From assembly GCF_003991155.1 (NCBI RefSeq), contig NZ_CP031293.1: DNA of 64,000 nt; one strand, written 5' to 3'. Positions 4,498 through 62,672 of the stretch are shown here, piece by piece. Position 1 is the stretch's first letter. Each line of letters begins with the position of its first letter. A program made the position numbers and the translations under genes. The stretch is from Escherichia coli (GTDB lineage Bacteria; Pseudomonadota; Gammaproteobacteria; Enterobacterales; Enterobacteriaceae). The notes beneath the pieces are model-generated. The model had not been told where the DNA came from. It searched no databases and worked only from the letters and a program-made list of their open reading frames with translations.

Positions 4498-4805
4498 AAG
4501 CTGCTCCCGGGCTTGCGAAAGCCCATGTCCATATTTTTGATGGAAGAAACAATAGGCAATCGCAGGCGGAGCAAACAGTGGATAAAAAGGCCATTTACTG
4601 GACTTTTGTAATATCAGTACAAAAATGCGATCCGCCTCATAACTTGCGATAATCCGGAAGCATGCCGCAAAACGGCGTCTTGTGAGACGCGTCGCAAATT
4701 GACGGTTACATTACATTTGTCCAGCTTTTGGCAGATTTGTCACATGGCAGGCCGTTACCGTGCGCTCTTATCCTGTAAACAGAAAACCGTACCGGGAGAA
4801 AGGCA

Positions 4806-7307
4806 ATGGCCCTGATTGTGGAATTTATTTGTGAGCTACCTAACGGCGTCCATGCGCGTCCGGCAAGCCACGTTGAAACGCTGTGTAATACTTTTTCATC
4901 ACAAATTGAGTGGCATAACCTGCGCACTGACCGCAAGGGCAACGCCAAAAGCGCCCTTGCGCTGATTGGCACCGACACGCTGGCGGGCGATAACTGCCAG
5001 TTACTGATTTCCGGGGCCGACGAACAGGAAGCGCACCAGCGTTTAAGCCAATGGCTGCGCGATGAATTCCCCCACTGCGATGCGCCGCTGGCAGAAGTTA
5101 AATCTGACGAACTGGAACCACTGCCGGTTTCACTGACCAATCTGAATCCGCAAATTATCCGCGCCCGCACCGTGTGCAGCGGTAGCGCAGGCGGCATTCT
5201 GACGCCGATCTCTTCTTTAGATCTCAATGCGCTGGGTAATCTTCCCGCTGCCAAAGGCGTTGACGCCGAGCAATCCGCGCTGGAAAACGGCCTGACGCTG
5301 GTACTGAAAAACATTGAGTTTCGTCTGCTGGATAGCGACGGTGCTACCAGCGCGATTCTGGAAGCGCACCGATCCCTGGCTGGCGATACTTCCCTGCGCG
5401 AACATTTACTGGCAGGCGTCAGCGAGGGATTAAGCTGTGCCGAAGCGATTGTCGCCAGTGCACACCACTTCTGCGAAGAGTTTTCCCGTTCCAGCAGCAG
5501 CTACCTGCAAGAACGCGCCCTGGACGTACGCGACGTCTGCTTCCAGTTACTCCAGCAAATCTACGGTGAGCAACGCTTCCCGGCACCGGGCAAACTGACG
5601 CAGCCCGCCATTTGTATGGCGGATGAACTGACCCCCAGCCAGTTCCTCGAACTGGATAAAAATCACCTCAAAGGATTGTTGCTCAAAAGCGGCGGCACCA
5701 CCTCACATACGGTGATCCTTGCCCGTTCGTTCAACATTCCGACGCTGGTTGGTGTGGATATTGATGCCCTCACTCCGTGGCAGCATCAAACGATTTATAT
5801 CGACGGCAACGCTGGGGCGATTGTGGTTGAGCCAGGGGAAGCCGTAGCTCGTTATTATCAGCAGGAAGCCCGCGTACAGGATGCCCTGCGTGAGCAACAG
5901 CGAGTCTGGCTGACCCAACAAGCCCGTACCGCTGACGGTATCCGCATTGAAATTGCTGCTAACATCGCTCACTCCGTGGAAGCGCAGGCTGCATTCGGCA
6001 ATGGTGCGGAAGGCGTTGGTTTATTCCGCACTGAAATGCTCTATATGGATCGCACCAGTGCACCGGGCGAAAGCGAGCTGTACAACATTTTTTGTCAGGC
6101 GCTGGAGTCCGCCAACGGACGCAGCATTATTGTGCGCACTATGGATATTGGCGGTGACAAACCCGTTGATTATCTGAACATTCCCGCAGAGGCAAACCCG
6201 TTCCTCGGTTATCGCGCCGTGCGTATTTATGAAGAGTACGCGTCGTTATTTACCACACAACTACGGTCGATCCTGCGTGCCTCCGCTCACGGCAGCCTGA
6301 AAATCATGATCCCGATGATCTCCTCAATGGAAGAGATCTTATGGGTAAAAGAAAAACTGGCAGAAGCCAAACAGCAACTACGTAACGAACACATTCCGTT
6401 TGATGAGAAGATCCAGCTCGGCATTATGCTGGAAGTGCCGTCGGTGATGTTCATCATCGATCAATGCTGCGAAGAGATTGATTTCTTTAGTATCGGTAGT
6501 AATGACCTGACGCAATATCTGCTGGCAGTGGATCGCGATAACGCTAAGGTTACTCGTCACTATAACAGCCTGAATCCGGCATTCCTGCGGGCGCTCGATT
6601 ACGCCGTGCAGGCGGTGCATCGCCAGGGCAAATGGATTGGTCTGTGCGGTGAACTAGGAGCGAAAGGTTCCGTGCTGCCGTTGCTGGTCGGCTTAGGGCT
6701 GGATGAACTCAGCATGAGCGCACCATCAATTCCGGCGGCGAAAGCGCGGATGGCGCAACTTGATAGCCGTGAGTGCCGCAAGTTGCTCAACCAGGCAATG
6801 GCCTGCCGTACTTCGCTGGAAGTGGAACACCTGCTGGCGCAATTCCGCATGACCCAACAAGACGCACCGCTGGTCACCGCCGAGTGCATCACACTGGAAA
6901 GCGACTGGCGCAGCAAAGAAGAAGTGCTCAAAGGCATGACCGATAACCTGCTGCTGGCGGGCCGCTGTCGCTATCCGCGTAAACTGGAAGCCGACTTGTG
7001 GGCGCGCGAGGCCGTTTTCTCTACCGGTCTGGGCTTTAGTTTTGCCATTCCCCACAGCAAATCAGAACACATTGAGCAATCCACCATCAGCGTGGCGCGT
7101 CTGGCAGCGCCGGTGCGCTGGGGCGATGATGAAGCGCAATTCATCATTATGTTAACCCTGAACAAACACGCCGCGGGCGATCAACATATGCGCATTTTCT
7201 CGCGCCTCGCTCGCCGCATCATGCACGAAGAATTCCGTAACGCGCTGGTTAACGCCGCCTCTGCCGACGCTATCGCCAGCCTGCTGCAACATGAACTGGA
7301 ACTGTAA
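4806..7307 (+). CDS. ptsA: Multiphosphoryl transfer protein (HPr-like, enzyme I-like and IIA-like domains)
   Basis: 833 aa ORF; N-terminal HPr-like domain (GVHARPA), central PEP-utilising enzyme I domain ([19 protein letters not shown]), C-terminal IIA-like domain; divergent from frwC. Confidence 0.93.
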
Positions 7308-7318
7308 AAGGAAACATC

Positions 7319-7981
7319 ATGGAACTGTATCTGGACACCGCTAACGTCGCAGAAGTCGAACGTCTGGCACGCATATTCCCGATTGCCGGGGTGACAACTA
7401 ACCCGAGCATTATCGCTGCCAGCAAGGAGTCCATATGGGAAGTGCTGCCGCGTCTGCAAAAAGCGATTGGTGATGAGGGCATTCTGTTTGCTCAGACCAT
7501 GAGCCGCGACGCGCAGGGGATGGTGGAAGAAGCGAAGCGCCTGCGCGACGCCATTCCGGGCATTGTGGTGAAAATCCCGGTAACCTCTGAAGGTCTGGCA
7601 GCAATTAAAATGCTGAAGAAAGAAGGCATTACTACGCTGGGAACCGCAGTGTACAGCGCCGCGCAAGGATTACTGGCGGCGCTGGCTGGAGCCAAATACG
7701 TTGCTCCATACGTTAACCGCGTAGATGCCCAGGGCGGTGACGGCATTCGTACTGTACAGGAGTTGCAAGCGTTACTGGAAATGCATGCGCCAGAAAGCAT
7801 GGTGCTGGCTGCCAGCTTTAAAACACCACGTCAGGCGCTGGATTGTTTGCTGGCTGGATGTGAATCCATCACACTGCCCTTAGATGTAGCGCAACAAATG
7901 CTTAACACCCCTGCGGTAGAGTCAGCTATAGAGAAGTTCGAGCACGACTGGAATGCCGCATTTGGCACTACTCATCTCTAA
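7319..7981 (+). CDS. fsaB: Fructose-6-phosphate aldolase 2 (transaldolase-like)
   Basis: 220 aa ORF starting [13 protein letters not shown]; TalC/Fsa family; 11 bp after ptsA. Confidence 0.93.
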
Positions 7982-7991
7982 AGGAGTAATT

Positions 7992-9095
7992 ATGGACCGC
8001 ATTATTCAATCACCAGGTAAATACATCCAGGGCGCAGATGTAATTAATCGTCTGGGCGAGTACCTGAAGCCACTGGCGGAACGCTGGTTAGTGGTGGGTG
8101 ACAAATTTGTTTTAGGTTTTGCTCAATCCACTGTCGAGAAAAGCTTTAAAGATGCTGGACTGGTAGTAGAAATTGCGCCGTTTGGCGGTGAATGTTCGCA
8201 AAATGAGATCGACCGTCTGCGTGGCATCGCGGAGACTGCGCAGTGTGGCGCAATTCTCGGTATCGGTGGCGGAAAAACCCTCGATACTGCCAAAGCACTG
8301 GCACATTTCATGGGTGTTCCGGTAGCGATCGCACCGACTATCGCCTCTACCGACGCACCGTGCAGTGCGTTGTCTGTTATCTACACCGATGAGGGTGAGT
8401 TTGACCGCTATCTGATGTTGCCAAATAACCCGAATATGGTCATTGTCGACACCAAAATCGTCGCTGGCGCACCTGCACGTCTGTTAGCGGCGGGTATCGG
8501 CGATGCGCTGGCAACCTGGTTTGAAGCACGCGCCTGTTCCCGTAGCGGCGCGACCACCATGGCGGGCGGCAAGTGCACTCAGGCAGCGCTGGCACTGGCT
8601 GAACTGTGCTACAACACCCTGCTGGAAGAAGGCGAAAAAGCGATGCTTGCCGCCGAACAGCATGTAGTGACTCCGGCGCTGGAGCGCGTGATTGAAGCGA
8701 ACACCTATTTGAGCGGTGTTGGTTTTGAAAGCGGCGGGCTGGCGGCGGCACACGCGGTACATAACGGCCTGACCGCTATCCCGGACGCGCATCACTATTA
8801 TCATGGTGAAAAAGTGGCATTCGGTACGCTGACGCAGCTGGTTCTGGAAAACGCGCCGGTGGAGGAAATCGAAACCGTAGCTGCGCTTAGCCATGCGGTA
8901 GGTTTGCCAATAACTCTCGCTCAACTGGATATTAAAGAAGATGTCCCGGCGAAAATGCGAATTGTGGCAGAAGCGGCATGTGCAGAAGGTGAAACCATCC
9001 ACAACATGCCTGGCGGCGCAACGCCAGATCAGGTTTACGCCGCACTGCTGGTAGCTGACCAGTATGGACAACGTTTCCTGCAAGAGTGGGAATAA
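7992..9095 (+). CDS. gldA: Glycerol dehydrogenase
   Basis: 367 aa from [13 protein letters not shown]; iron-type alcohol dehydrogenase motifs ([12 protein letters not shown]); the ORF-track start at 7953 is an upstream in-frame extension overlapping fsaB. Confidence 0.93.
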
Positions 9096-9103
9096 CCTAC
9101 TCC

Positions 9104-9130
9104 AAACTCCCGGCTTGTCCGGGAGTTTGA
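9104..9130 (+). terminator. Hairpin immediately downstream of gldA (caaactcccgg-cttgt-ccgggagtttg)
   Basis: Perfect 11 bp inverted repeat 9 bp after the gldA stop; no strong T-run, so intrinsic-terminator function is uncertain. Confidence 0.5.
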
Positions 9131-9171
9131 GAGTGCAGGCAAAGTGGCTCACTCGTCACTGCGGGCATGTT

Positions 9172-9282
9172 TTTCCCCCTCGCCCTTTCAGGGAGAGGGG
9201 CGGGGTGAGGGTAAATATTCGCCCCGGAGCTGGCCTGTACCCCTCACCCTAACCCTCTCCCCAAAGGGGAGAGGGGACTGTT
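9172..9282. repeat. GC-rich imperfect palindromic intergenic repeat element (family not assigned)
   Basis: Segments gggagaggggcggggtgagggta and cccctcaccctaaccctctccccaaaggggagagggg are mutually complementary and internally palindromic; located in the gldA-yijF spacer. Confidence 0.5.
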
Positions 9283-9425
9283 CGAGCACTTTTTATACGT
9301 TATCACCCGTCTGAAACTCCCACGTTGTTCAGGAATTTTTTATCCGCTTCTGGACATTTTCTCCACAGAACAATCGTTAGCCCGGAAGGTCGAATCTGTG
9401 ACTCTTATTTTCACGGACGAAACAG

Positions 9426-10043
9426 ATGAAAGCTTCACTGGCGTTATTCAGTCTTCTGACGGTATTTACCAGTTACTCCTTAAAATCTCCCGCCGTTCCA
9501 CCAACCGTGGTACAAATCCAGGCCAACAGCAATCTTGCCATCGCAGACGGTGCCAGACAGCAAATCGGCAGCACGCTATTTTACGATCCGGCGTATGTGC
9601 AGCTTACCTATCCTGGCGGTGATGTCCCGCAAGAACGCGGCGTATGTTCCGATGTGGTGATCCGTGCATTGCGCAGCCAGAAGGTCGATTTGCAGAAACT
9701 GGTGCACGAAGATATGGCGAAGAATTTTGCTGCGTACCCGCAAAAATGGCAGTTAAAGCGCCCGGACAGCAACATCGATCACCGTCGGGTGCCTAATCTG
9801 GAAACCTGGTTTACCCGCCACGATAAAACACGCCCCACCAGCAAGAACCCCAGTGACTATCAATCGGGCGATATTGTCTCCTGGCGATTAGATAACGGGC
9901 TGGCACATATTGGGGTGGTGTCAGATGGCTTCGCCCGCGACGGTACGCCGCTGGTGATACATAACATTGGCGCAGGCGCGCAGGAAGAAGACGTGCTGTT
10001 TAGCTGGCGGATGGTGGGGCACTATCGGTATTTTGTTAAATAA
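9426..10043 (+). CDS. yijF: DUF1287-family secreted protein YijF
   Basis: 205 aa ORF with N-terminal signal peptide (MKASLALFSLLTVFTSYS); recognised as E. coli YijF; synteny. Confidence 0.88.
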   Translation: MKASLALFSLLTVFTSYSLKSPAVPPTVVQIQANSNLAIADGARQQIGSTLFYDPAYVQLTYPGGDVPQERGVCSDVVIRALRSQKVDLQKLVHEDMAKNFAAYPQKWQLKRPDSNIDHRRVPNLETWFTRHDKTRPTSKNPSDYQSGDIVSWRLDNGLAHIGVVSDGFARDGTPLVIHNIGAGAQEEDVLFSWRMVGHYRYFVK

Positions 10044-10069
10044 GCGATCGCCCCACATGAAGAAAAAAT

Positions 10070-10975
10070 TCAGATGTTTTTTACACTGACAGCTTCTTTT
10101 TTCTTACGGCTCACCAGCGCCAGTGCCAGCACAATCAGCACAATACCGCTACCTTCAACGGCCCCCGGATTCTCACCGAGCAGCCACCAGGAAAAGAGTA
10201 CGCCGCAAACGGGAACGGCCAGTGTGCTTAAGCTGGCAATACTGGCAGGCAAGTTTTTCAATACAAACAACCATAAGCTCCACGCCAGCGCTGTCGCCAG
10301 AATCGCACTGTAGGCCAGCGCCCAGAACACGGTGGGTTGCCAGTCAATTTCACGTTGCGGCACCAGTAAAGCGACCACGCTCATCACCAGCGCCGCATAC
10401 AGCATCTGCCAGGATGTTAGCGACAATAAATCCACGCGCGGATGGCGGGCATACAGACGTTTAGCAACAATCGCGCTCGCCCCCCAACTCACACCGGAGA
10501 GGATTGCCAGCATGGCGCTTTTCATCGAAGAGAAATCGAGTTGCCACGGCTGCAACACCAAAAATAAGCCGAAAGCGGCAATCAGTATCGCGAAATATTG
10601 CCCACGTCGCAGGCGTTCACCGAGAAACAACGCGGCGAAAATCACCACCCAGAACGGCATGGTATAGCTCAGGATTGCCACCTTCCCCGCTCCGCCGCTG
10701 ACCAGCGCCCACTGTGCCAGGCCGACCATCCCGCAGGTTTGTAACAGGGCAATGGCTAAGGTGTATTTAAACGGTGTCGGGCGCATTCCGCGACCACGTA
10801 ATAAAAGGACGATGAATAAAACGAGAGCGCCGAAAATGCAGCGTAAGGCGGTAAAGTCGAAGGCACCGATGTAGCTGGTGACTTGCTTCATGAAAATCCA
10901 GCTATAACTCCAGATAAGTGTGAGCACAACCAGGCCACTGATTGCCAGTGGGTTGCTCTTTCCTGCGGCAGACAT
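10070..10975 (-). CDS. yijE: EamA/DMT-family inner-membrane transporter (cystine exporter-like)
   Basis: About 301 aa polytopic membrane protein starting [17 protein letters not shown]; the ORF-track start at 11008 is an upstream extension. Confidence 0.88.
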
Positions 10976-11017
10976 GAGAGATCCAGTGTGTAGTTTTCCT
11001 GTGGACACTATACGCCG

Positions 11018-11062
11018 GTAAAGAAACTTCAGCGACTGCCTGAAAGGCAGTCGCTGAAGAAG
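11018..11062 (-). terminator. katG terminator hairpin (cttcagcgactgcc-tgaaa-ggcagtcgctgaag)
   Basis: Perfect 14 bp inverted repeat just downstream of the katG stop, in the katG-yijE spacer. Confidence 0.6.
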
Positions 11063-11068
11063 GTCAGA

Positions 11069-13303
<2,235 letters not shown>

Positions 13304-13576
13304 TTATAATTGAATTAATCCACGGATGCGATAGTTGAGATCTTACATATTGTTGGTTAAAGAGATGTAGATCAAATTGATCGTAATTAAGCTTTTTTGA
13401 TTATGTCCGATTTCGGACAAATACTTTATAAAAAAGGGTTTTAGATTCGTATCCTTCAAGAAATGAGGGAGAAAACGAGGCTGACTACCTTATTTTCTCA
13501 CTCGCATTTCAGGCAGCATTTTGTGCTCTGTTTAAAATTTGTGATCGCAGTGTGATTTTCACAAAAGTCACAGTAT

Positions 13577-14470
<894 letters not shown>

Positions 14471-14542: not shown

Positions 14543-14848
14543 ATGAAGGAAAAGCCGAGGGGCGTCAACCGAAAAATGACCAATGATGGTGAGGAAAAAT
14601 CAGGGAAGTTGAAAAAAACTCATCTTAATTAGAGGCGATAAAAGATTTCTCTATAGCGCAATCCACCTCGCACGTTTTGACTGATATTCTGACAACACAG
14701 CGACACCTGGGCTTATTCGAAAAACAACGTCCTGCCACCGGATGGTGATGCTAAGGCATCTGATTCGGCCTGCGCCCTCGCGTAGGCCGAATACTGGATC
14801 TGCAAAATCAACGGGTAACAAACAGATGAATCAACTCAATACGTACTT

Positions 14849-16408
14849 TTACTTGATATCTTTCACGCGCATACCGTTGATCTGTTCATCCGTGATGGTG
14901 TTACCCGCTTTGAAGTAATCAACCACGGCGTGATAAACGTAATAACCGCCCGTTGTGTTACGCGCTTTCCCTTCGGTAAAGGCGGTAAAACCATCTCCAC
15001 CATCAGCAAGGAAACTCTGGGTGGCAATAGAATAAACTGTCGCATCTTCAATGGGTTTGCCATTCAGAGTCAGTGTGATTACCCGCTGACCAACCGGTTT
15101 GCTGCTGTCGTACTTCATTTCCAGGCCTTTCGATACCTGTAAAACGCCATTACTTAAACTTGCGCCGTGTTCCATCAAACTGCGTAATTGTTTACCCGTG
15201 AGTTCCATCGTCACCAGTTCGTTGGGGAACGGGAAGGTACTGATGACGCCGCCCATCGTAATCGCCCCTGCGGGGATCTCATTGCGAATGCCGCCAGAGT
15301 TGGTTAACGCCAATTGGGTGTTTTTACCCGCCGCTACCAGTAAAGCATCAGCCGCCAGGTTCCCGAGGGAAGCCGATTCACCATAGGCACGTTTTAATTC
15401 AACCGGCGATTGCGCGACCGTTTGTTGCACCACTTCATCAAGCTTTTTATTCCAGCCGTCGATCACCTGTTTTGTTTGCGGATCGGGCTTCCACTCGTCG
15501 GCGTAAATGGTTTTAAGCTCGAAGTTTTTCACCGTAAAATCATGCGGCTTCTCTTTGTAGTCCAGTACCAGTTTACCGACATCAATCCCACCGCTGTCAG
15601 TGGAGAGGATGAGCGTATTGCCGACTTTAATCGGTTCCGGCGTACCCACATGTGCATGCCCGGTGATCAAAATATCCAGCCCTTTCACCTGACTTGCCGT
15701 CTGAATATCTTTATCCAGTGCGCGGCGCACATCTGTGCCCCCCATACTGGACTGGCGGGCCGGAACACCTTCGTGAATCAGCGCAACGGTCAAATCAACC
15801 TTGCCTTTGAGTTCATCGATATAACGTTGTAGCCATTTAATTTCATCACGCGCCTCAATACCCACTCGCGTTGCCGCAGATACCGTATCATTAAAGGCAA
15901 ATACACCGTGCAAACCAATCACGCCAATTTTCACGCCGTCTTTTTCAATGATGGTATAGGGCTTATCCCAGAATGATTTACTGCTGTTCTGATAAAAAAC
16001 ATTACCCTGCACAATCGGGAATTTTGCCTGACTCAACTGTAATAACGTATTGTCCCAGCCGTGATCAAATTCATGATTACCTATAGTGACCGCATCGAAT
16101 GGCATGGTATTCATAATATCGATAATCGCCTTGCCTTTAGTCAGGCTGCTGATATACGGCCCGGTAAAATAGTCACCCGCATCAAAAAACCAGGTCGCTT
16201 TGTTTTTAGCTTTTTCTTGTTTAACAAGCGTAGTGATATTTGCCCAGCCGCCAATATCTCGTTTACCGTCAGCAATCCACGGCACTTTATAAGGCTCTAC
16301 ATGTGCATGGAGGTCGTTGGTATAAATGATGGTGACATCTTTGGCGCAAGCCCAAAACGGCAGTGTTAATGCGATACCCGCAGCAAGCATTTTAATTTTC
16401 ATAAACAA
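14849..16408 (-). CDS. Secreted 5'-nucleotidase-family metallophosphoesterase, paralog 1
   Basis: 519 aa; N-terminal signal peptide; calcineurin-like phosphoesterase motifs [32 protein letters not shown]; C-terminal 5'-nucleotidase-type motifs (FPFPNEL, GGDGF). Confidence 0.85.
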
Positions 16409-16534
16409 TCCCTTCCAGTGAGATAAAGGATTGCTACATTACGTTCTGAAAGGCTTTTTTATGTGAGAATACTCACATCCAGAGGCGATAACTGTAGGAC
16501 AAAATCAACGACCTTATGAAATCGTTGGTGATAT

Positions 16535-17662
16535 ATGTCAAATCTGTTTGCGATTAATGTCTGTAAAACGTTCGGTTGTCGAAATTTGGGATTGGCCTCA
16601 TCGGAAGATTACAGTTGGCCAGACTATAAACTGGGTTTTCCGGCACTGCACTGCCAGGCATGCGGAAGTTACCCCCCTTTGTTTGATGAACAACAATTTC
16701 GTGACTGGTTGTCAGTTCACATGACTGCGTGTGCCATAGAAACAGGGCATTTTTGTCCATCATGCTATTGTAAAGAAAAGATTTTTTATGGCCACAACCC
16801 GCAGGGAACACAACGCGTTCAATGCCGTTCATGCAAAAAAGTCTGGACTCCGAAACAGCAGCCAGCAAGAGAAATTACGTATCCCCAGTCCATTGAAACC
16901 GTTCAACTGTTCATGCCCTTTCAAGGAGCCAGCGCAGTACAAAAGCTCTATGTTTTAGTCAGTCTTGACGCCACTCGTGGCAACATCCTTCATCTCTCCA
17001 CGAATTATACGCAACATCAGACAGGAGACAGTCTGCGGTACAGTTACAGAGGCAATACAGAACCAACTGAGCACCATAGCGATATTGTGCAGAGGGTAGA
17101 TATGCGTGAAGCGCAATTCTTGCGCCGGAGCCAGTTCGATGAAATTCAGTATGGCAGTGCTGTGCTCAAGCGCAATGGCAAGGGAGCCATACTACGCCCG
17201 GTTATCACGGCACACGGGCATTTCAGAATACTGAAAATCCGCTTTCCACATGTCAAAACGCATATCATTTCACACGAATGTTTTCTGAGAGGCGCAATTA
17301 TTACAGCCTGGGCAGATCAGTTCCGCCAACAACAAGGCGAACTTTGGTTCGTAGAAGAAGAAATCAGCGACCGTAACGCTGATATTCCCTGGCATTTTCA
17401 GGGAACGACATACCATGGTTGGTGGCAAAATCAGTGGCAACGCTGGGGGCAGGGGAATAACAGCAAGATGGTCTGCCTGCTCACAGGAGTCTCCTTAGAA
17501 AGGGGCGCAAATGTTTCTCTGGCAACCAGTCGTTGCTTTATCACATGGCTGACAGACCAACACGACTTTACCCAAAGCGCGTTATTATCCGCAGGTCGCG
17601 TAACGAAAATGCTGACCTCACTGGCGTTAAAATACAATGAATCGCTCACTCCATCTTGTTAG
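16535..17662 (+). CDS. Hypothetical Cys-rich protein (multiple CxxC pairs, possible zinc ribbon); function unknown
   Basis: 375 aa ORF; no signal peptide or TM segment; N-terminal CKTFGC, CQAC, CPSCYC, CRSC motifs; divergent from paralog 1 and upstream of paralogs 2 and 3. Confidence 0.6.
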   Translation: MSNLFAINVCKTFGCRNLGLASSEDYSWPDYKLGFPALHCQACGSYPPLFDEQQFRDWLSVHMTACAIETGHFCPSCYCKEKIFYGHNPQGTQRVQCRSCKKVWTPKQQPAREITYPQSIETVQLFMPFQGASAVQKLYVLVSLDATRGNILHLSTNYTQHQTGDSLRYSYRGNTEPTEHHSDIVQRVDMREAQFLRRSQFDEIQYGSAVLKRNGKGAILRPVITAHGHFRILKIRFPHVKTHIISHECFLRGAIITAWADQFRQQQGELWFVEEEISDRNADIPWHFQGTTYHGWWQNQWQRWGQGNNSKMVCLLTGVSLERGANVSLATSRCFITWLTDQHDFTQSALLSAGRVTKMLTSLALKYNESLTPSC

Positions 17663-17891
17663 TCAATACACTCGACAAACGACCATAAATTAATGGGATC
17701 ACTATTTCTCATTTAATTAAATATATGAATGTATGACTGAAAAATATAATCACAGTCAATGTTTAATTAATAACATTATTTGTTACTAAGATCACATAAT
17801 ACTTTCCTGACCTATGCTTACATAAAAATAAGACACGGTGTTCCTTTTATTTAAATAATTCAACCAATGTAACAACCCCTATCAAGGAGGG

Positions 17892-19445
17892 ATGATGAGA
17901 ACTGTATTTACGACTTTATCAGTCATATTCAGCGTGATGTTTTCTCACAGTATACTAGCTCAGGACGTTACTATTTATTATACGAATGATATTCACGCAC
18001 ATGTCAATCCGGCAAAAATTCCCGCTGTTGATAAGAACAGACTTGTAGGTGGTATGGCTAATATTGCAGGCATCGTTAATGAAGCGAAGAAAAAAAACAA
18101 AGATGTCTTTTTCTTTGATGCAGGCGACTATTTTACCGGTCCGTATATCAGTACCCTGACCAAAGGTGAAGCTATTATTGATATCATGAACACCATGCCC
18201 TTTGATGCGGTGTCCGTTGGTAATCACGAGTTCGATCACGGCGTGCCCAATATGGTATCTCAGTTATCAAAAGCAAAATTCCCCATTCTGCTGGGAAATA
18301 TTTACTACACCGATACAAATAAACCAGTTTGGGATCATCCGTGGACCATTATCGAAAAAGATGGTTTAAAGATTGGTGTGATTGGATTGCATGGTGCATT
18401 CGCTTTCTATGATACAGTCGCGGCAAAAGCACGTGAAGGCGTAGAAGCCAGAGACGAAATTAAATATTTAAATAAAGCACTTGCAGAATTAAAAGGTAAA
18501 GTCGACATTACCGTTTTGCTAATTCACGAAGGTGTTCCGGCGCGTCAATCAAGCTTTGGTAGTAAAGATGTGGAGCGGCTACTACAGGCAGATATTGAGA
18601 CAGCTAAAAAAGTGAATGGTGTTGATGTCTTAATTACCGGTCACGCACATGTCGGAACACCGCAACCAATAAAAGTTAATAACACATTAATTGTATCTAC
18701 CGATGCATACGGCACCGACATCGGAAAACTTGTGCTTGATTACAATCCGAAAACAAAGAAAATTGATAGTTATAATGGTGAGTTAATCACCATCTTTGCA
18801 GATCAATTTAAACCTGACACCATCGTTCAAAATACTATCGATAAATGGAGCGTAAAACTTAACAAAATAACACAGGAAGTTGTCGGCCATTCTCCCGTAG
18901 TTTTAACACGTGAGTATGGCAGTTCTTCTTCTACCGGTAATCTTATTCTGGATGCAATGATGGAAAAAACACCTGATGCCATTGCCGGATTTCAAAATAG
19001 CGGTGGGATGCGAGCTGATTTTCCTAAAGGTGATATCACACTGGGAGATGTTATTAGCACATTCCCCTTTAATAATGACCTCATCGAGATGGATTTGACG
19101 GGCCGCGATCTCAAATCGTTGATGACGCATGCAACCAATCTAACTAACGGTGTGTTACAGGTTTCAAAAAGCGTTGCGGTTGTCTATGACAGCAAAAAAC
19201 CACTCAACCAACGGTTAATCTCTTTCACCATTAACGGCAAACCCGTGGAAGATAATCAAACATATCGTATTGCCACGCACTCCTTTTGTGCCAGTGGTGG
19301 TGACGGTTTTGAAGCATTTTTGAATGGAAAAAATGTGAAGACGATACCGGGAACAACCTCGGCGGAATCTATCATCGATTATTTCAAAAATCATAAACCT
19401 GTCACCCCAGACTTAACTAAACGAGTCATGGACGTCGCCAAATAA
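17892..19445 (+). CDS. Secreted 5'-nucleotidase-family metallophosphoesterase, paralog 2
   Basis: 517 aa; signal peptide ending SILA-QD; same phosphoesterase motif set ([32 protein letters not shown]); SD aggagg upstream; the true start may be the second ATG at 17895. Confidence 0.85.
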   Translation: MMRTVFTTLSVIFSVMFSHSILAQDVTIYYTNDIHAHVNPAKIPAVDKNRLVGGMANIAGIVNEAKKKNKDVFFFDAGDYFTGPYISTLTKGEAIIDIMNTMPFDAVSVGNHEFDHGVPNMVSQLSKAKFPILLGNIYYTDTNKPVWDHPWTIIEKDGLKIGVIGLHGAFAFYDTVAAKAREGVEARDEIKYLNKALAELKGKVDITVLLIHEGVPARQSSFGSKDVERLLQADIETAKKVNGVDVLITGHAHVGTPQPIKVNNTLIVSTDAYGTDIGKLVLDYNPKTKKIDSYNGELITIFADQFKPDTIVQNTIDKWSVKLNKITQEVVGHSPVVLTREYGSSSSTGNLILDAMMEKTPDAIAGFQNSGGMRADFPKGDITLGDVISTFPFNNDLIEMDLTGRDLKSLMTHATNLTNGVLQVSKSVAVVYDSKKPLNQRLISFTINGKPVEDNQTYRIATHSFCASGGDGFEAFLNGKNVKTIPGTTSAESIIDYFKNHKPVTPDLTKRVMDVAK

Positions 19446-19485
19446 AATATCATTTATCAGTCTATATATTTAACAAGGAATGCGA

Positions 19486-21105
19486 ATGAAAACAGTGCAG
19501 CGTACTTTACTTGCCGCAACATTGCTGACTATTTTTTCGGTCTCAGTCATGGCGCAGGATGTCACGATTATTTATACAAATGATCTTCACGCTCATGTGG
19601 ATTCTTATAAAGTGCCGTATATCGCAGACGGAAAACGCGACATTGGCGGCTTTGCCAATATATCTACTTTAGTAAAACAAGAGAAAGCGAAAAATAAAGC
19701 CACCTTTTATTTTGATGCTGGAGACTATTTCACCGGCCCTTATATCAGCAGTCTGACAAAGGGCGAAGCAATAATTGACATTATGAATACCATGCCTTTT
19801 GACGCAGTATCAATCGGTAATCATGAGTTTGACCATGGCTGGGATAATGCCCTGCGACAATTAAGCAAAGCGAATTTTCCTGTTTTATTGGGCAATGTTT
19901 ATCATAAAGAGAGTGAGAACCCCTTCTGGAACAAGCCCTACACCATCCTGGAAAAAGATGGCATCAAGATTGGTATTATTGGGCTACACGGCGTATTTGC
20001 ATTTAATGATACGGTCTCGGAGCTCTCTCTCCAGGGACTCGATAATGACAATAATAACCGCTTTGATAAATCTTCCGAGACCCTTAAGAATCAGGGGATT
20101 GAAGCACGTGATGAAGTGAAGTATTTGCAGCATTATATCGACGAGTTACGTGATAAGGTTGACCTCACTGTGGCGCTGGTTCATGAAGGCGTTCCGGCGC
20201 GTCAGTCCAGCATTGGCAATACAGATGTTAGACGCGCTCTTGATAAAGATATTCAAACCGCTAGCAAGGTGAAAGGATTGGATATTCTGATTACCGGGCA
20301 TGCCCACGTCGGAACGCCAGAACCAATCAAAGTCGGCAACACCTTAATCCTTTCGACTGATAGTGGCGGTATCGATATTGGTAAATTAGTCCTTGATGTC
20401 AACCCTACAGCTCGTACCCATAAAATGAAGAGCTTTGAGCTGAAAACAGTTTATGCCGATGAATGGATACCCGATCCAACGACACAAAAAGTTATCAATG
20501 GCTGGAATAAAAAACTGGCGGATATTGTACGCCAACCAGTAGGTGAATCATCGATTGCATTAACTCGCGCCTATGGTGAGTCATCGCAACTAGGCAACCT
20601 GTTTACCGATGCAATGCTTGTCGCTGCTCCGACTGCACAGATTGCATTGATAAACTCCGGCAGCTTACGTGCGGATATAAATGCAGGCACGATTACCTTT
20701 GGCGACATTACCAGTACATTCCCCTTCAAGAATGAACTTACTGAAATGGATCTCAGCGGTAAGGATCTGCGTAACCTACTGGAACACGGGGCATCGCTTA
20801 CCAATGGCATCCTGCAAATGTCAAAAGGCGCAGAAATGCGCTATACCCCGCAGAAACCAGTAGGTCAGCGCATAGTATCTTTTAAAATTAATGGTGAAGA
20901 GATCGTTGATACGAATATTTACCATGTTGCAACAACGACTTTCCTTGCACTGGGGGGCGATGGTTTTCTGGCATTCAAAGAAGGGAAAAATGTTCAGGTC
21001 CGCGCCGGAAATAACATGTCCGATGTCGTGATCGATTATTTGAAGAAAGGCCACAAGATTACGCCTGCACAGGTAAATGAAATGCGGGTGGACGTTAGCA
21101 AATAA
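19486..21105 (+). CDS. Secreted 5'-nucleotidase-family metallophosphoesterase, paralog 3 (closest to paralog 1, with an extra low-complexity insert)
   Basis: About 539 aa from MKTVQRTLLAATLL (the ORF track starts two codons earlier at 19480); signal peptide VMA-QD; motifs as in paralog 1; insert SELSLQGLDNDNNNRFDKSSETLKNQ absent from paralogs 1 and 2. Confidence 0.85.
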   Translation: MKTVQRTLLAATLLTIFSVSVMAQDVTIIYTNDLHAHVDSYKVPYIADGKRDIGGFANISTLVKQEKAKNKATFYFDAGDYFTGPYISSLTKGEAIIDIMNTMPFDAVSIGNHEFDHGWDNALRQLSKANFPVLLGNVYHKESENPFWNKPYTILEKDGIKIGIIGLHGVFAFNDTVSELSLQGLDNDNNNRFDKSSETLKNQGIEARDEVKYLQHYIDELRDKVDLTVALVHEGVPARQSSIGNTDVRRALDKDIQTASKVKGLDILITGHAHVGTPEPIKVGNTLILSTDSGGIDIGKLVLDVNPTARTHKMKSFELKTVYADEWIPDPTTQKVINGWNKKLADIVRQPVGESSIALTRAYGESSQLGNLFTDAMLVAAPTAQIALINSGSLRADINAGTITFGDITSTFPFKNELTEMDLSGKDLRNLLEHGASLTNGILQMSKGAEMRYTPQKPVGQRIVSFKINGEEIVDTNIYHVATTTFLALGGDGFLAFKEGKNVQVRAGNNMSDVVIDYLKKGHKITPAQVNEMRVDVSK

Positions 21106-21117
21106 TAAAAAAATTAT

Positions 21118-21150
21118 AATGCCATTCATTCACTGAATGGCATTATTTTT
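21118..21150 (+). terminator. Intrinsic terminator after nucleotidase paralog 3
   Basis: Perfect palindrome aatgccattcattcactgaatggcatt followed by attttt. Confidence 0.65.
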
Positions 21151-21183
21151 CTCTAAATCAACAATAGATAATGAGATATATTT

Positions 21184-22044
21184 ATGTGTATAAAAAAGCA
21201 CGGGATAGCGTTATCGATTCTATTAATACCTTGCATTGGAAACGCTCAGGAAATTAAAAGTGAGGAAGGCTGGTTACATCAAAGCTTGAATGTCATTGGT
21301 CGCACAGACTCTCGCTTTGGCCCAAGGCTGACTAACGACCTCTACCCTGAATATACTGTAGCAGGAAGAAAAGACTGGTTTGATTTTTATGGTTATGTTG
21401 ATCTACCAAAATTCTTTGGCGTCGGCAGTCACTATGATGTTGGGATCTGGGATGAGGGCTCACCCCTATTTACGGAAATAGAACCTCGGTTTTCCATTGA
21501 CAAATTGACCGGATTAAATCTTGCGTTCGGCCCTTTTAAAGAATGGTTCATTGCAAACAACTATGTCTATGATATGGGTGACAACCAGTCATCCCGGCAA
21601 AGTACATGGTATATGGGGCTTGGTACAGATATCGACACGGGTCTACCAATTAAGCTTTCTGCCAATATATACGCCAAGTATCAGTGGCAAAACTATGGTG
21701 CCGCTAATGAAAATGAATGGGACGGATATCGATTCAAAATAAAATATAGCATTCCTCTTACCCATTTATTCGGAGGGCGATTGGTATACAATAGTTTTAC
21801 TAACTTTGATTTTGGCTCCGATCTTGCGGACAAATCACACAATAATAAACGAACCAGTAATGCTATTGCTTCAAGCCATATCCTTTCCCTGCTATATGAA
21901 CACTGGAAATTTGCATTTACACTACGTTATTTTCACAACGGTGGACAATGGAATGCTGGGGAGAAAGTTAACTTCGGAGATGGTCCATTTGAATTAAAAA
22001 ACACAGGATGGGGAACCTATACTACTATTGGTTATCAATTTTAA
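21184..22044 (+). CDS. Tsx-family outer-membrane nucleoside-specific channel protein (paralog of tsx)
   Basis: 286 aa; signal peptide; shares recalled Tsx blocks [79 protein letters not shown]; ends in a C-terminal aromatic residue (GYQF) typical of beta-barrels. Confidence 0.85.
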
Positions 22045-22221
22045 ATCAGGTGATGTTTTAGATATTTTTACTTAATGCCATTTTGTAATTGTCATAAATA
22101 ACTTCACCATTCACACTGTGAATTCATCGCTCAACACAAAAGCCCCCTTATTACCGGGGCACTGACCAAAGGCAAAATGACAATCAATCACCACCTCCGC
22201 AGGAGGTGGTTTAGAGGTGAC

Positions 22222-22250
22222 AACAAAAGCTGGCAACTGCCAGCTTTTGT
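22222..22250 (-). terminator. metL terminator hairpin (aaaagctggc-aact-gccagctttt)
   Basis: Perfect 10 bp inverted repeat flanked by A/T runs, about 12 bp downstream of the metL stop. Confidence 0.7.
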
Positions 22251-22260
22251 TCAATAATCA

Positions 22261-35606: not shown

Positions 35607-36293
35607 ATGGACGTATTCATGCAGAATATTATTCTTTTATTTATATATTTATTACTTATAGTCGTTAACCATTTCCGCTACAAATTCCTTTTGTCTGGCA
35701 ACACGGGTGAAATGATTTTATATTTTGCTAACGTATTTTTTAACCCACTTGCCTTATCATTTATTATCGCCGCAATCATCTGTATAACGATAAAAAAAAG
35801 AAGCAGCCACAGCTTTATTCGCGGCACTTGTTGGTTAATGGGATTATTTCTTATCTATAGCAGCTATACAGTGTGGGAACGACACAGCACATGGGATTAT
35901 ACTTTCCCGGGGCCAGGTATCACCGTCACAGTTCCGAGCAAACAGTGGGTTGCCAATATAGTAAAACAAGGACCAATCCTGGTGACTCGGGATGCCCATG
36001 CTATTTTAGTTATTGTTGCCTTCTCACAAAATGAACTCGGTGTGCATTCAATCGAGGAACTTACCGCGACTCAAAACGGAACTGCACAAATGCATGTTTG
36101 TGATGTTAAGGGATTTGCCTGCGCTTATCAGGAAGGAATTCAAACAATGAGTGATGGCAAAATAAGACATGCTATTTTCATGACTCTACTGGATAACACT
36201 AATTTGATACGACTGGTCGCAGCTATCGACCCAGATTATTTGGACGAATATCAAGAAGAAGTAATGAAAATGATACTTTCTGCCCATCAATAA
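35607..36293 (+). CDS. Hypothetical 3-TM membrane protein, islet paralog A
   Basis: 228 aa AT-rich ORF; three N-terminal hydrophobic helices then a soluble domain; shares motif blocks with the downstream paralog (LLSGxxG, IKK, RGxCWxxG, WxYTF, ITVTxP, MxSA); the start may be the internal ATG at 35619. Confidence 0.6.
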   Translation: MDVFMQNIILLFIYLLLIVVNHFRYKFLLSGNTGEMILYFANVFFNPLALSFIIAAIICITIKKRSSHSFIRGTCWLMGLFLIYSSYTVWERHSTWDYTFPGPGITVTVPSKQWVANIVKQGPILVTRDAHAILVIVAFSQNELGVHSIEELTATQNGTAQMHVCDVKGFACAYQEGIQTMSDGKIRHAIFMTLLDNTNLIRLVAAIDPDYLDEYQEEVMKMILSAHQ

Positions 36294-36325
36294 TCTGATG
36301 TGCATGTTAATAATAAGGGATTGAT

Positions 36326-37042
36326 ATGAGATACGTTATCTTATTAATACTATGGATAATAACTACTTTTCTTAGTCATCTTCAGCACAGCAACCTACTG
36401 TCTGGAGATCCTGGCATGGTTGGCGAGTATATCGGTTCAGTATTTCTGGGGCCGTTGTTACTTCCCGTGCTTGTGTCAGGTATTCTGTGCGCATTTATTA
36501 AAAAAACACGTAACTTCGCCAGTTTTACTCGCGGGTGCTGTTGGGTATTGGGAATCCTGCTTTTATCCAAAGTCGGCAATACGTTTCGTATGTTTACCCC
36601 GTGGCAATATACCTTTGAGAATGCTGCGATAACCGTGACTATCCCGAACCGACACTGGAATACGGTTTCCATTAGTACTAATGAAACCATTGATATAAGA
36701 AGTGAGGATAATAGCGTCTTCATTTCTGCTTTCCGCCTGCCCGCAGGACGTAGCGCCGATGACCCGCTGGAAGCGTTAAAGAAGAAGCAGCGAGACAATC
36801 TCAAGGATCAATACAATGAGGAAGCCTTCCAGTTTCATGATTGTAATGCCAAACATTTCACCTGTAAGTATCAGGATGTGTTGATAAATTTTGATGGTCA
36901 GCAGAAAAGAACCATCAGTGTTTATCTTGAAGACACCCCCAGGGCTGTGGGGATCATTGCATTAATGGCGCCAGATACGGCAGATAAATATCGCCAACAG
37001 GCGATGGAGATTATGCTTTCCGCTAAAAATGCAGTGAAGTAA
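36326..37042 (+). CDS. Hypothetical 3-TM membrane protein, islet paralog B
   Basis: 238 aa AT-rich ORF with the same topology and motif blocks as paralog A; followed by hairpin aaggcgccttgcggcgcct. Confidence 0.6.
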   Translation: MRYVILLILWIITTFLSHLQHSNLLSGDPGMVGEYIGSVFLGPLLLPVLVSGILCAFIKKTRNFASFTRGCCWVLGILLLSKVGNTFRMFTPWQYTFENAAITVTIPNRHWNTVSISTNETIDIRSEDNSVFISAFRLPAGRSADDPLEALKKKQRDNLKDQYNEEAFQFHDCNAKHFTCKYQDVLINFDGQQKRTISVYLEDTPRAVGIIALMAPDTADKYRQQAMEIMLSAKNAVK

Positions 37043-47206: not shown

Positions 47207-47307
47207 ATGCCGGATGCGGCGCGAACGCCTTATCCGGCCTACAAAAGTTTGCAAATTCAATAAATTGCAGAATTCATGTAGGCCTGATAAGCGAAGCGCA
47301 TCAGGCA
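47207..47307. repeat. BIME: two REP elements in inverted orientation (sbp-pfkA spacer)
   Basis: gccggatgcggcgcgaacgccttatccggcctaca and its inverted partner tgtaggcctgataagcgaagcgcatcaggcat, separated by an AT-rich linker. Confidence 0.8.
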
Positions 47308-52282: not shown

Positions 52283-53560
<1,278 letters not shown>

Positions 53561-62439: not shown

Positions 62440-62672
62440 CGGATGCGGCACAAGTGCCTTATCCGGCCTACGGGTCGGCAATAGTTGTAGGCCTGATAAG
62501 ACGCGACAGCGTCGCATCAGGCATTGATTGCCGGATGCGGCACGAGCGCCATATCCGGCCTACGGGTCGGCAATAGTTGTAGGCCTGATAAGACGCGACA
62601 GCGTCGCATCAGGCATTGATTGCCGGATGCGGCACGAGTGCCTTATCCGGCCTACAGATCGTACATCCGGCA
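62440..62672. repeat. Tandem REP/BIME array in the rhaA-rhaD spacer (about 98 bp unit repeated)
   Basis: Unit ccggatgcggcacNagNgccNtatccggcctacgggtcggcaatagttgtaggcctgataagacgcgacagcgtcgcatcaggcattgattg occurs twice in tandem with a third partial copy. Confidence 0.8.

Follow-up and report, generated by a model that had tools for sequence, protein, structure and literature searches.

A variable island between metF and metL of Escherichia coli carries three diverged nucleotidase paralogs and a Tsx-like channel, with a plausible role in nucleotide scavenging

Introduction

In this work we examine a 64,000-nucleotide stretch of the Escherichia coli chromosome (RefSeq assembly GCF_003991155.1, contig NZ_CP031293.1; this whole stretch is hereafter the window), in which three diverged paralogs of the periplasmic 5'-nucleotidase family, here named P1, P2 and P3, lie together between the core genes metF and metL. 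How did three such genes come to stand side by side, and what might they do there? A preliminary description, made by reading the sequence, had regarded them as retained duplicates, two of which form an inverted pair that could still recombine; it left aside a Tsx-like channel gene, a divergent partner gene (HYP) and the island that holds them all. Here we find that the trio is a resident gene joined by an imported cassette, and not a local triplication, and we propose that the island functions in catabolite-controlled periplasmic nucleotide scavenging, a reading to which we assign a probability of roughly 0.6.

In the scheme that we favor, three Sec-exported enzymes would remove phosphate from nucleotides, or from compounds containing them, that have entered the periplasm; permeability to nucleosides would be raised by a second outer-membrane channel of the Tsx type, and the products would be imported by the normal inner-membrane nucleoside transporters. 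Cyclic AMP-CRP, acting at a single central site, would probably activate at least P1 and its divergent neighbor HYP, which would constitute a response to carbon limitation, and HYP, a zinc-ribbon protein that appears to derive from a transposase, would be the likely specific regulator. P1 and HYP would represent old Enterobacteriaceae residents of the metL-metF interval that were lost in K-12-like lineages, and P2-P3-tsx a low-GC cassette that was added downstream of HYP and that homologous recombination would have carried into ~12% of E. coli.

Results

Three intact genes encode predicted exported members of a distinct nucleotidase subfamily

The claim of three intact paralogous genes at 14849-21105 was borne out, as none of them contains a frameshift or an internal stop (Table 1). 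Of the lengths first given (519, 517 and about 539 aa), that of 539 aa stands, and RefSeq assigns 517 and 516 aa to the other two, the starts chosen earlier lying 2 and 1 codons upstream. RefSeq annotates all three as bifunctional metallophosphatase/5'-nucleotidase. As previously noted, their N-termini read directly from the sequence as Sec signal peptides, with the charge, hydrophobic core and small-residue cleavage pattern of this class; putative cleavage falls before KD in P1, between FSHSILA and QD in P2, and between FSVSVMA and QD in P3, and the P1 construct crystallised for the Protein Data Bank (PDB) begins at residue 19. In P1, Pfam identifies the domains Metallophos (PF00149, E 4e-12) and 5_nucleotid_C (PF02872, E 5e-39), a pair that is precomputed for homologs of all three paralog types.

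The full calcineurin-like metal-site set was likewise found in each protein. Using the metal ligands, catalytic pair and substrate clamp of the UshA structural literature, we found the equivalents of Asp41, His43, Asp84, Asn116, His117, Asp120, His217 and His252 to be kept in P1, P2, P3 and 40 orthologs, together with those of the catalytic His-Asp pair, Arg410, the Phe429/Phe498 clamp and Asp504. In all three paralogs, the UshA metal ligand Gln254 is replaced by His, and Gly458 by Leu. The resemblance among the paralogs extends well beyond these motifs, as the three-way alignment is full-length and collinear. P1 and P3 are the closest pair, as had been described, with a protein identity of 68% in global alignment, although the roughly 80% estimated by eye for their N-terminal halves was measured as 77% (60% for the C-terminal halves); P2 is indeed more divergent, at 57% to both P1 and P3. 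At the nucleotide level, identities are 67% (P1/P3), 58% (P1/P2) and 59% (P2/P3), falling to 35-42% at third positions. The extra length of P3 is due to the insertion SLQGLDNDNNNRFDKSSETLKN, which spans ~20 residues in the three-way alignment and 23 in the pairwise alignment with P1.

Profile comparisons placed the trio below the thresholds of the named families. Against the UshA equivalog NF007109 (cutoff 600 bits) P1, P2 and P3 scored 152, 166 and 155 bits; against NadN TIGR01530 (cutoff 436 bits), 133, 123 and 121 bits; and against CpdB NF006938 (cutoff 486 bits), where only the N-terminal domain matched, 103, 83 and 100 bits. Scores against SoxB TIGR04486 (cutoff 550 bits) were 148-154 bits, and neither the list of open reading frames (ORFs) nor the RefSeq annotation contains sox genes near the trio. 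P1, P2 and P3 are members of the UshA/CD73 5'-nucleotidase superfamily by domain architecture and conserved residues, and belong to a subfamily distinct from UshA, NadN, CpdB and SoxB.

The subfamily has a structure in hand: residues 19-517 of P1 align without gaps, at ~98.5% identity, with PDB entries 3IVD/3IVE, titled 'Nucleotidase', the next best solved relatives being the Thermus thermophilus 5'-nucleotidase 2Z1A and then CD73 ecto-nucleotidases. 3IVD/3IVE are structural-genomics entries, probably of CFT073 c4898 with uridine and cytidine bound. The locus-tag series fits this assignment, in that c4894 is the tsx gene of the island in CFT073 (PMC5956150). Literature searches found neither a biochemical characterisation of, nor a publication on, c4898, 3IVD or 3IVE; a c4895 named in one preprint turned out to be a gene of a different strain.

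The cassette includes a Tsx-like channel gene

The gene that follows P3, annotated in RefSeq as nucleoside-specific channel-forming protein Tsx, encodes a protein that passes the NCBIfam Tsx threshold with ease (NF011686, 492 bits against a cutoff of 311, residues 2-286 aligned to positions 6-289 of a 289-position profile) and that matches the Tsx crystal structures 1TLW/1TLY/1TLZ at E 1e-114 (1.4e-114 to 1TLW). It is 67% identical to Tsx according to a published comparison (PMC12928451). P2 and P3 are probably co-transcribed, because only 40 bp separate the end of P2 from the start of P3. The hairpin between P3 and the Tsx-like gene (21116-21146) looks like a terminator or an attenuator.

A conserved CRP-like site lies between P1 and HYP

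P1 and the divergently oriented HYP are separated by a 132-bp region that contains the candidate CRP site TGTGAgaatacTCACA, the sole perfect TGTGA-N6-TCACA in the window. In 15 of 19 orthologous intergenic regions both half-sites are retained around a 6-bp spacer of variable sequence, which is the pattern that would be expected of a CRP site, and the distance of ~66 bp to either start codon would allow class II activation at each of the divergent promoters, given leaders of ~25 nt. In addition, an inverted repeat, CAACGA-N10-TCGTTG, directly 5' of the HYP ribosome-binding site, is unique in the window and kept in 15 P1-type loci of several genera, and could be an operator or a hairpin of the 5' untranslated region. 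A conserved CAAAAT hexamer lies between the CRP site and the HYP start.

The motifs conserved between P1 and HYP do not recur upstream of P2 or elsewhere. Upstream of P2 we identified a second CRP-like site with 1 mismatch, TGTTACTAAGATCACA, and a promoter-like pair of hexamers. Inspection by eye of the island revealed one weak CytR half-site, with neither tandem CRP sites nor a clear CytR operator. The gene for CytR itself, the repressor of the nucleoside catabolic regulon, was observed ~8 kb from the island (~29948-30973), a proximity that is probably a coincidence of normal K-12 gene order.

A resident gene pair has been joined by an accessory cassette

Alignment to K-12 breaks off in the spacer next to metF and restarts at metL, delimiting an island of ~7.6 kb with a GC content of 41-49%, compared with ~54% in the flanks; its K-12 counterpart is ~200 bp of filler containing repetitive extragenic palindromic (REP) elements, in which no gene remnants were detectable. 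Among 5,426 complete E. coli genomes, P1 and HYP are present in 1,839, and the P2-P3-tsx cassette (coverage of at least 80%) in 658 (~12%), including CFT073. The island therefore occurs in three states: a full form (658 genomes), a short form (~1,180) and an empty, K-12-like junction (~3,580).

To place these states in a wider context, we surveyed one genome per species and mapped the loci by tblastn. The order metL-HYP-P1-metF was found in many Citrobacter species, Pseudocitrobacter, Kosakonia, Phytobacter, Superficieibacter, Kluyvera, Salmonella enterica subsp. arizonae and Escherichia whittamii, and this synteny covers at least 8 genera. In these loci P1 is 87-99% identical, as is MetL, and the P1 orthologs at metL-metF in Citrobacter, Kluyvera, Kosakonia, Phytobacter, Superficieibacter and Salmonella arizonae are 87-91% identical at the amino acid level. 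Because this order is common to so many genera, the P1-HYP short form is most simply read as ancestral, and the K-12 state would then probably represent a loss. Salmonella Typhi and Newport were observed to encode partial P1-like proteins annotated as hypothetical (P0088 and P0101, ~330-370 aa, 91-94% identical over half their length), which may be pseudogene remnants of the same locus.

A different arrangement, in which HYP is divergent from P1-P2-(P2')-Tsx-P3, occupies another chromosomal site and is complete in Enterobacter asburiae. Partial loci in E. cloacae, E. albertii and a Citrobacter species agree with this arrangement, that of E. albertii being incomplete upstream and comprising the P2-P2'-Tsx-P3 part only. 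In the window, by contrast, P2-P3-tsx sits downstream of HYP, and it is on this difference in arrangement that we conclude that the trio combines a resident gene with an imported cassette. One contig, which bears the label E. coli SCPM-O-B-8794 (NZ_JAATUR010000031.1, 4591-13462) also carries HYP divergent from P1-P2-P2'-Tsx-P3, and was considered as a second E. coli nucleotidase cluster; this was rejected, as the cluster is present in 0 of the 5,426 complete genomes and the adjoining kdsA is only ~90% identical to that of E. coli, and the contig is probably from another species or a contamination.

The paralogs are old and constrained

The preliminary description held that the copies are old duplicates under purifying selection, and that P1 and P3 differ at many synonymous sites; both points stand. 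Among 352 identical amino acids shared by P1 and P3, 187 are encoded by different codons. Nonsynonymous divergence (dN) among the paralogs is 0.22-0.39 and synonymous divergence (dS) is saturated, so that it cannot be estimated: the Nei-Gojobori (NG86) value is undefined, maximum-likelihood values of 8-25 are meaningless, and paralog dN/dS is accordingly unreliable. We instead compared orthologs from the window strain, CFT073 and one short-form strain, obtaining dN/dS values of 0.02-0.05 for P1, 0.11 for P2, 0.08 for P3 and 0.10 for the Tsx-like gene. The constraint on P1 is on par with that on metF (0.00-0.03).

When 48 homologs from 35 loci were placed in a neighbour-joining tree, with K-12 UshA and CpdB as outgroups, three orthologous clades were resolved, each spanning several genera, with those of P1 and P3 as sisters, P2 outside and UshA/CpdB far away. 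The P2 clade includes orthologs from Siccibacter, E. albertii and Enterobacter. We propose that the divergence of the trio predates the separation of the enteric genera. Their description as retained duplicates thus holds with respect to age, but not in the sense of copies that arose and were retained in this genome, where P1 is a syntenic resident and P2-P3 an accessory cassette.

HYP is a transposase-like protein consistently paired with nucleotidase genes

HYP, annotated in RefSeq as a hypothetical protein, always stands divergent from a nucleotidase gene, in three genomic contexts across which HYP identity ranges from 37% to 100%. A word-index search recovered homologs in Enterobacteriaceae only, annotated 'cytoplasmic protein', and Pfam and NCBIfam offered nothing beyond a weak match to the InsA/IS1 zinc ribbon. 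An AlphaFold2 model built from a 27-sequence alignment (predicted local distance difference test score, pLDDT, 80.5; predicted template modelling score, pTM, 0.85) has as its Foldseek neighbors in the AlphaFold database a gammaproteobacterial family whose members carry the annotation IS1 family transposase or are described as proteins with an InsA domain. The eight cysteines that form its two Cys4 ribbons are kept in all or all but one of the 27 sequences, and a DDE triad could have D145 as its first Asp and E248 as its Glu; no conserved acidic residue follows beta4 of the model in the 27 sequences, where the second Asp would be sought.

HYP falls outside the IS1 family, scoring 20.4 bits against NF033558 (cutoff 100). 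It is present once per genome in all 752 genomes where it was detected, and no inverted repeats were reported on either side of it when the island was scanned for repeats. The low IS1 score, single copy, synteny, absence of flanking repeats and lack of a second conserved Asp are the reasons why, on the basis of the model, HYP looks like a domesticated transposase-like protein that is not mobile. A second copy, or a mobile HYP, in B2 strains ('two places per genome') was considered and rejected, as HYP and the REP-like spacer are both single-copy; the spurious second place in the megablast counts is a chance 28-nt word shared by P1 of the window (16147-16174) and P2 of CFT073.

HYP is likely to be a domesticated transposase-like protein that serves as a specific regulator of the nucleotidase genes. 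More tentatively, and as a possibility that we consider doubtful in its full extent, HYP could be an IS1-like transposase exapted as a dedicated nucleotidase transcription factor of Enterobacteriaceae, with CRP and HYP controlling a joint regulon of which the trio is the output. If so, more distant relatives of HYP may regulate other scavenging hydrolases, such as sulfatases, and the divergence of HYP between island forms would reflect a regulator co-evolving with the imported cassette. In Salmonella enterica subsp. arizonae (locus L070, 2608-11530) we observed a HYP-like gene (25% identity) beside an anaerobic sulfatase maturase and a sulfatase, with a P2-like nucleotidase ~4 kb away; the wider HYP family may accompany other scavenging hydrolases.

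Between full and short forms, HYP alleles share 72-76% amino acid identity with a dS of 1.2-1.8, whereas the adjacent P1 is 98-99% identical with a dS of 0.15-0.27, and identity falls sharply from ~16350-16650 onward. The sharp drop and the contrast in dS together suggest that homologous replacement spread the full form, through one crossover close to where P1 adjoins HYP and another within metL; the drop in identity there points to an old recombination breakpoint or allelic replacement. A truncated or fused HYP in the short form, proposed from megablast homology ending at 17475, was dismissed, as protein alignment reveals a full-length protein with a divergent C-terminus.

Flanking genes and other features of the window

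In the ORF list, katG and metF lie on one side of the trio and metL on the other. By megablast, the window matches E. coli strain 2016C-3878 at 100% identity. A REP-like GC-rich hairpin (TTCGGCCTGCG...CGTAGGCCGAA) was noted downstream of P1 at 14741-14800, within a metF-P1 spacer of 231 bp that is single-copy per genome and differs from the REP-like filler of the K-12 empty site. Within the island there was no match to Rfam families, and an anti-phage check with defence-system models (PADLOC) gave no match. Elsewhere in the window, the zapB-rraA interval (~35619-37042) holds two RefSeq 'hypothetical protein' genes, partly in a patch of ~44% GC, and may be another small accessory insertion. Rfam matches comprise three REP-derived naRNA4 elements (52289-52366, 62490-62560 and 62582-62652); the other RNA and promoter elements are a ClpQY promoter at 32062, an L31 leader at 27398 and ES036 at 47244.

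Table 1. Positions of the island, its genes and its candidate regulatory elements in the window.
Feature	Position	Strand	Basis or remark
Variable island between metF and metL	14618..22261	.	K-12 alignment stops at 14617 and restarts at 22262
metF	13577..14467	-	Core gene, left island flank (ORF list, RefSeq)
P1, 517-aa periplasmic 5'-nucleotidase-family enzyme; resident, cross-genus syntenic copy	14849..16402	-	RefSeq start
Candidate CRP site TGTGAgaatacTCACA, centre ~66 bp from P1 and HYP start codons	16462..16477	.	
Inverted repeat CAACGA-N10-TCGTTG, directly 5' of HYP ribosome-binding site	16506..16527	.	Stem-loop scan and alignment
HYP, 375-aa cytoplasmic protein with two invariant Cys4 zinc ribbons and RNase-H-like (DDE transposase/integrase) fold	16535..17662	+	
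Second CRP-like site TGTTACTAAGATCACA, 1 mismatch, ~100 bp upstream of P2	17781..17796	.	Weak evidence
Promoter-like -35/-10 pair upstream of P2	17830-17859		Weak evidence
P2, 516-aa paralog; most divergent, lowest GC (40.7%); first gene of accessory cassette	17895..19445	+	RefSeq start
P3, 539-aa paralog; sister clade of P1; 20-23 residue insertion	19486..21105	+	RefSeq start
Hairpin between P3 and Tsx-like gene, 13-bp stem, T-runs on both sides	21116..21146	.	Stem-loop scan
Tsx-like outer-membrane nucleoside channel paralog, 286 aa	21184..22044	+	NCBIfam Tsx, structure matches
metL	22261..24693	-	Core gene, right island flank (ORF list, RefSeq)

Discussion

The island as such is already known, from the RefSeq annotation, the PDB entries and a recent paper in which it appears as region GR31 (metL..metF) of the avian pathogenic E. 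coli (APEC) strain BEN2908 (PMC12928451, PLoS One 2026). There, GR31 is described as common to APEC BEN2908, CFT073, UTI89, RS218 and the adherent-invasive E. coli (AIEC) strains LF82 and NRG857c, and as containing three UshA-domain ORFs of 1554, 1551 and 1620 bp and an 861-bp Tsx homolog, which its authors read in silico as a coordinated nucleoside processing and transport system. As an independent suggestion, this counts in favor of nucleotide scavenging.

A number of observations weigh against this proposal. None of the NCBIfam equivalog cutoffs is reached by P1, P2 or P3, and the substrates could be UDP-sugars, NAD or cyclic or dinucleotides and not simple nucleoside monophosphates. UshA, CpdB, AphA and Tsx are already present in E. 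coli, which leaves the additional benefit of a second system unexplained. The CRP dependence of P1 and HYP is predicted from the DNA sequence only, the second CRP-like site upstream of P2 is imperfect, and the hairpin between P3 and the Tsx-like gene may uncouple the expression of these two genes. Moreover, c4894, the island tsx gene of CFT073, is induced by overexpression of TosR (PMC5956150), which fits relief of the silencing of AT-rich DNA more than a nutrient signal, and beyond this case our literature searches found no expression data for the island genes. Finally, because no deletion scar is detectable at the empty site of K-12, the ancestral presence of P1-HYP is read from synteny alone.

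If the enzymes do not feed the cell, they may instead act on its host, destroying extracellular ATP, NAD or cyclic dinucleotides or generating adenosine, and so dampening innate immunity, with precedents in Staphylococcus AdsA and the CpdB of avian pathogenic E. coli. Such a virulence role would explain an enrichment of the cassette in extraintestinal pathogenic E. coli (ExPEC), and the listed carriers of the full island do include the ExPEC/B2 strain CFT073, APEC strains and Nissle (EcN). The sharing of the island by BEN2908, UTI89, RS218, LF82 and NRG857c in the GR31 description (PMC12928451), the response of c4894 to TosR, a regulator of uropathogenic E. coli (PMC5956150), and the ranking of the T. 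thermophilus 5'-nucleotidase and CD73 ecto-nucleotidases as closest solved relatives after 3IVD could all be taken in the same sense. However, P1-HYP is kept in the environmental or plant-associated Kosakonia, Phytobacter, Rahnella and Superficieibacter, the full island also occurs in strains from pig, sheep, marmot, mouse and a native rodent, and both the conserved CRP site and the pairing with Tsx favor a nutritional role; literature searches for an infection phenotype found none, and we consider a virulence function to be quite unlikely. A separate question is whether three enzymes need imply three activities, as the preliminary description did in suggesting sub-functionalised substrate specificities; they might instead be redundant isozymes maintained for dosage or robustness, with P2 and P3 hitch-hiking with the cassette. 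The canonical substrate-contacting residues are identical across the three clades, and of the 34 positions that are conserved within but different between clades, only 8 fall in the C-terminal substrate domain and only 3 near the pocket motifs (375 and 377, which are 2 and 4 residues from the phosphate-binding Arg373, and 465, beside the stacking Phe464). Nevertheless, the clades have been kept distinct under purifying selection across genera since before these split, and the C-terminal halves of the paralogs are less alike (50-60% identical) than the N-terminal halves (63-77%). Furthermore, Enterobacter, E. albertii and contig SCPM-O-B-8794 hold three to four paralogs in a single cluster, with one of the P1 type, one of the P3 type and one or two of the P2 type. 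Such co-retention of all three clades, sometimes in one operon, would argue against simple redundancy, which we regard as unlikely.

The preliminary description had also suggested that the inverted P1/P3 pair supports recombination inverting the 16.4-19.5 kb segment, so that HYP and P2 would occasionally flip. P1 and P3 are inverted, and a repeat finder detects aligned arms of 461 and 303 nt; these are, however, complementary at only 76% and 75%, respectively, and exact matches between P1 and P3 reach at most 17 nt, whether in the window or in CFT073, the maximum over all paralog pairs of a single genome being 20 nt. In E. coli, RecA-dependent exchange requires a minimum of ~23-27 nt of identity and falls steeply with divergence; with a longest match below this minimum, RecA-driven inversion is not supported. 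Neither gene-conversion tracts nor any 60-nt segment above 83% identity were found between the paralogs, and no recombinase gene, site-specific or other, appears in the island in the ORF list, RefSeq or family profiles. The whole 8.8-kb region is collinear in 658 genomes, which equals the number that carry the cassette at the coverage used here, and at most 2 of 660 genomes could be rearranged, one of the two being a small fragment. Near-identical inverted repeats or a recombinase, together with both orientations among genomes, are what would mark an invertible segment, and this region lacks these marks. We consider inversion by homologous recombination extremely improbable, and the suggestion was not sustained.

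Overall, we view this as a real but ordinary observation, an accessory island of plausible nutritional role. Its value lies in drawing attention to a 5'-nucleotidase subfamily apart from UshA, NadN and CpdB for which a structure exists, to the lack in K-12 of what appears to be an ancestral enterobacterial pair of nucleotidase and regulator, and to a transposase-derived protein family that is consistently coupled to nucleotidase genes, HYP being the most interesting loose end. Should the specificities of the enzymes differ, for example towards cyclic dinucleotides, NAD or UDP-sugars, the cassette could help to explain metabolic or host-interaction differences between ExPEC/B2 and K-12-like strains. 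Within the limits of our literature search, the synteny of P1-HYP across genera, the conservation of the CRP core, the DDE fold of HYP and the rejection of inversion may be new.

Comparison with known systems

The available part of the GR31 description (PMC12928451) covers the enzymes and the channel, and contains no discussion of HYP, the CRP site, the synteny of P1-HYP across genera, the short form or the paralog phylogeny. With IS1/IS1595 transposases, HYP shares an N-terminal InsA-type zinc ribbon and an RNase-H-like DDE fold, from which it differs in its sub-cutoff score, its single copy and its fixed synteny across genera. The structures 3IVD/3IVE represent essentially P1 itself, and they are also the closest solved structures for P2 and P3. 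UshA (PDB 1USH) has in common with the trio a two-domain architecture, a periplasmic site, a dimetal site, the His-Asp pair, Arg410 and the Phe-Phe clamp; unlike the trio, it occupies a long separate branch in the tree, and the phmmer match of P1 to 1USH is limited to the N-terminal domain, as is the alignment of the NadN structure to P1. The island channel passes the same family threshold as Tsx of K-12, yet is a second, diverged paralog. In the nucleoside catabolic regulon, the promoters of tsx, deo, udp and cdd are CRP-dependent, and the island likewise carries a CRP consensus site.

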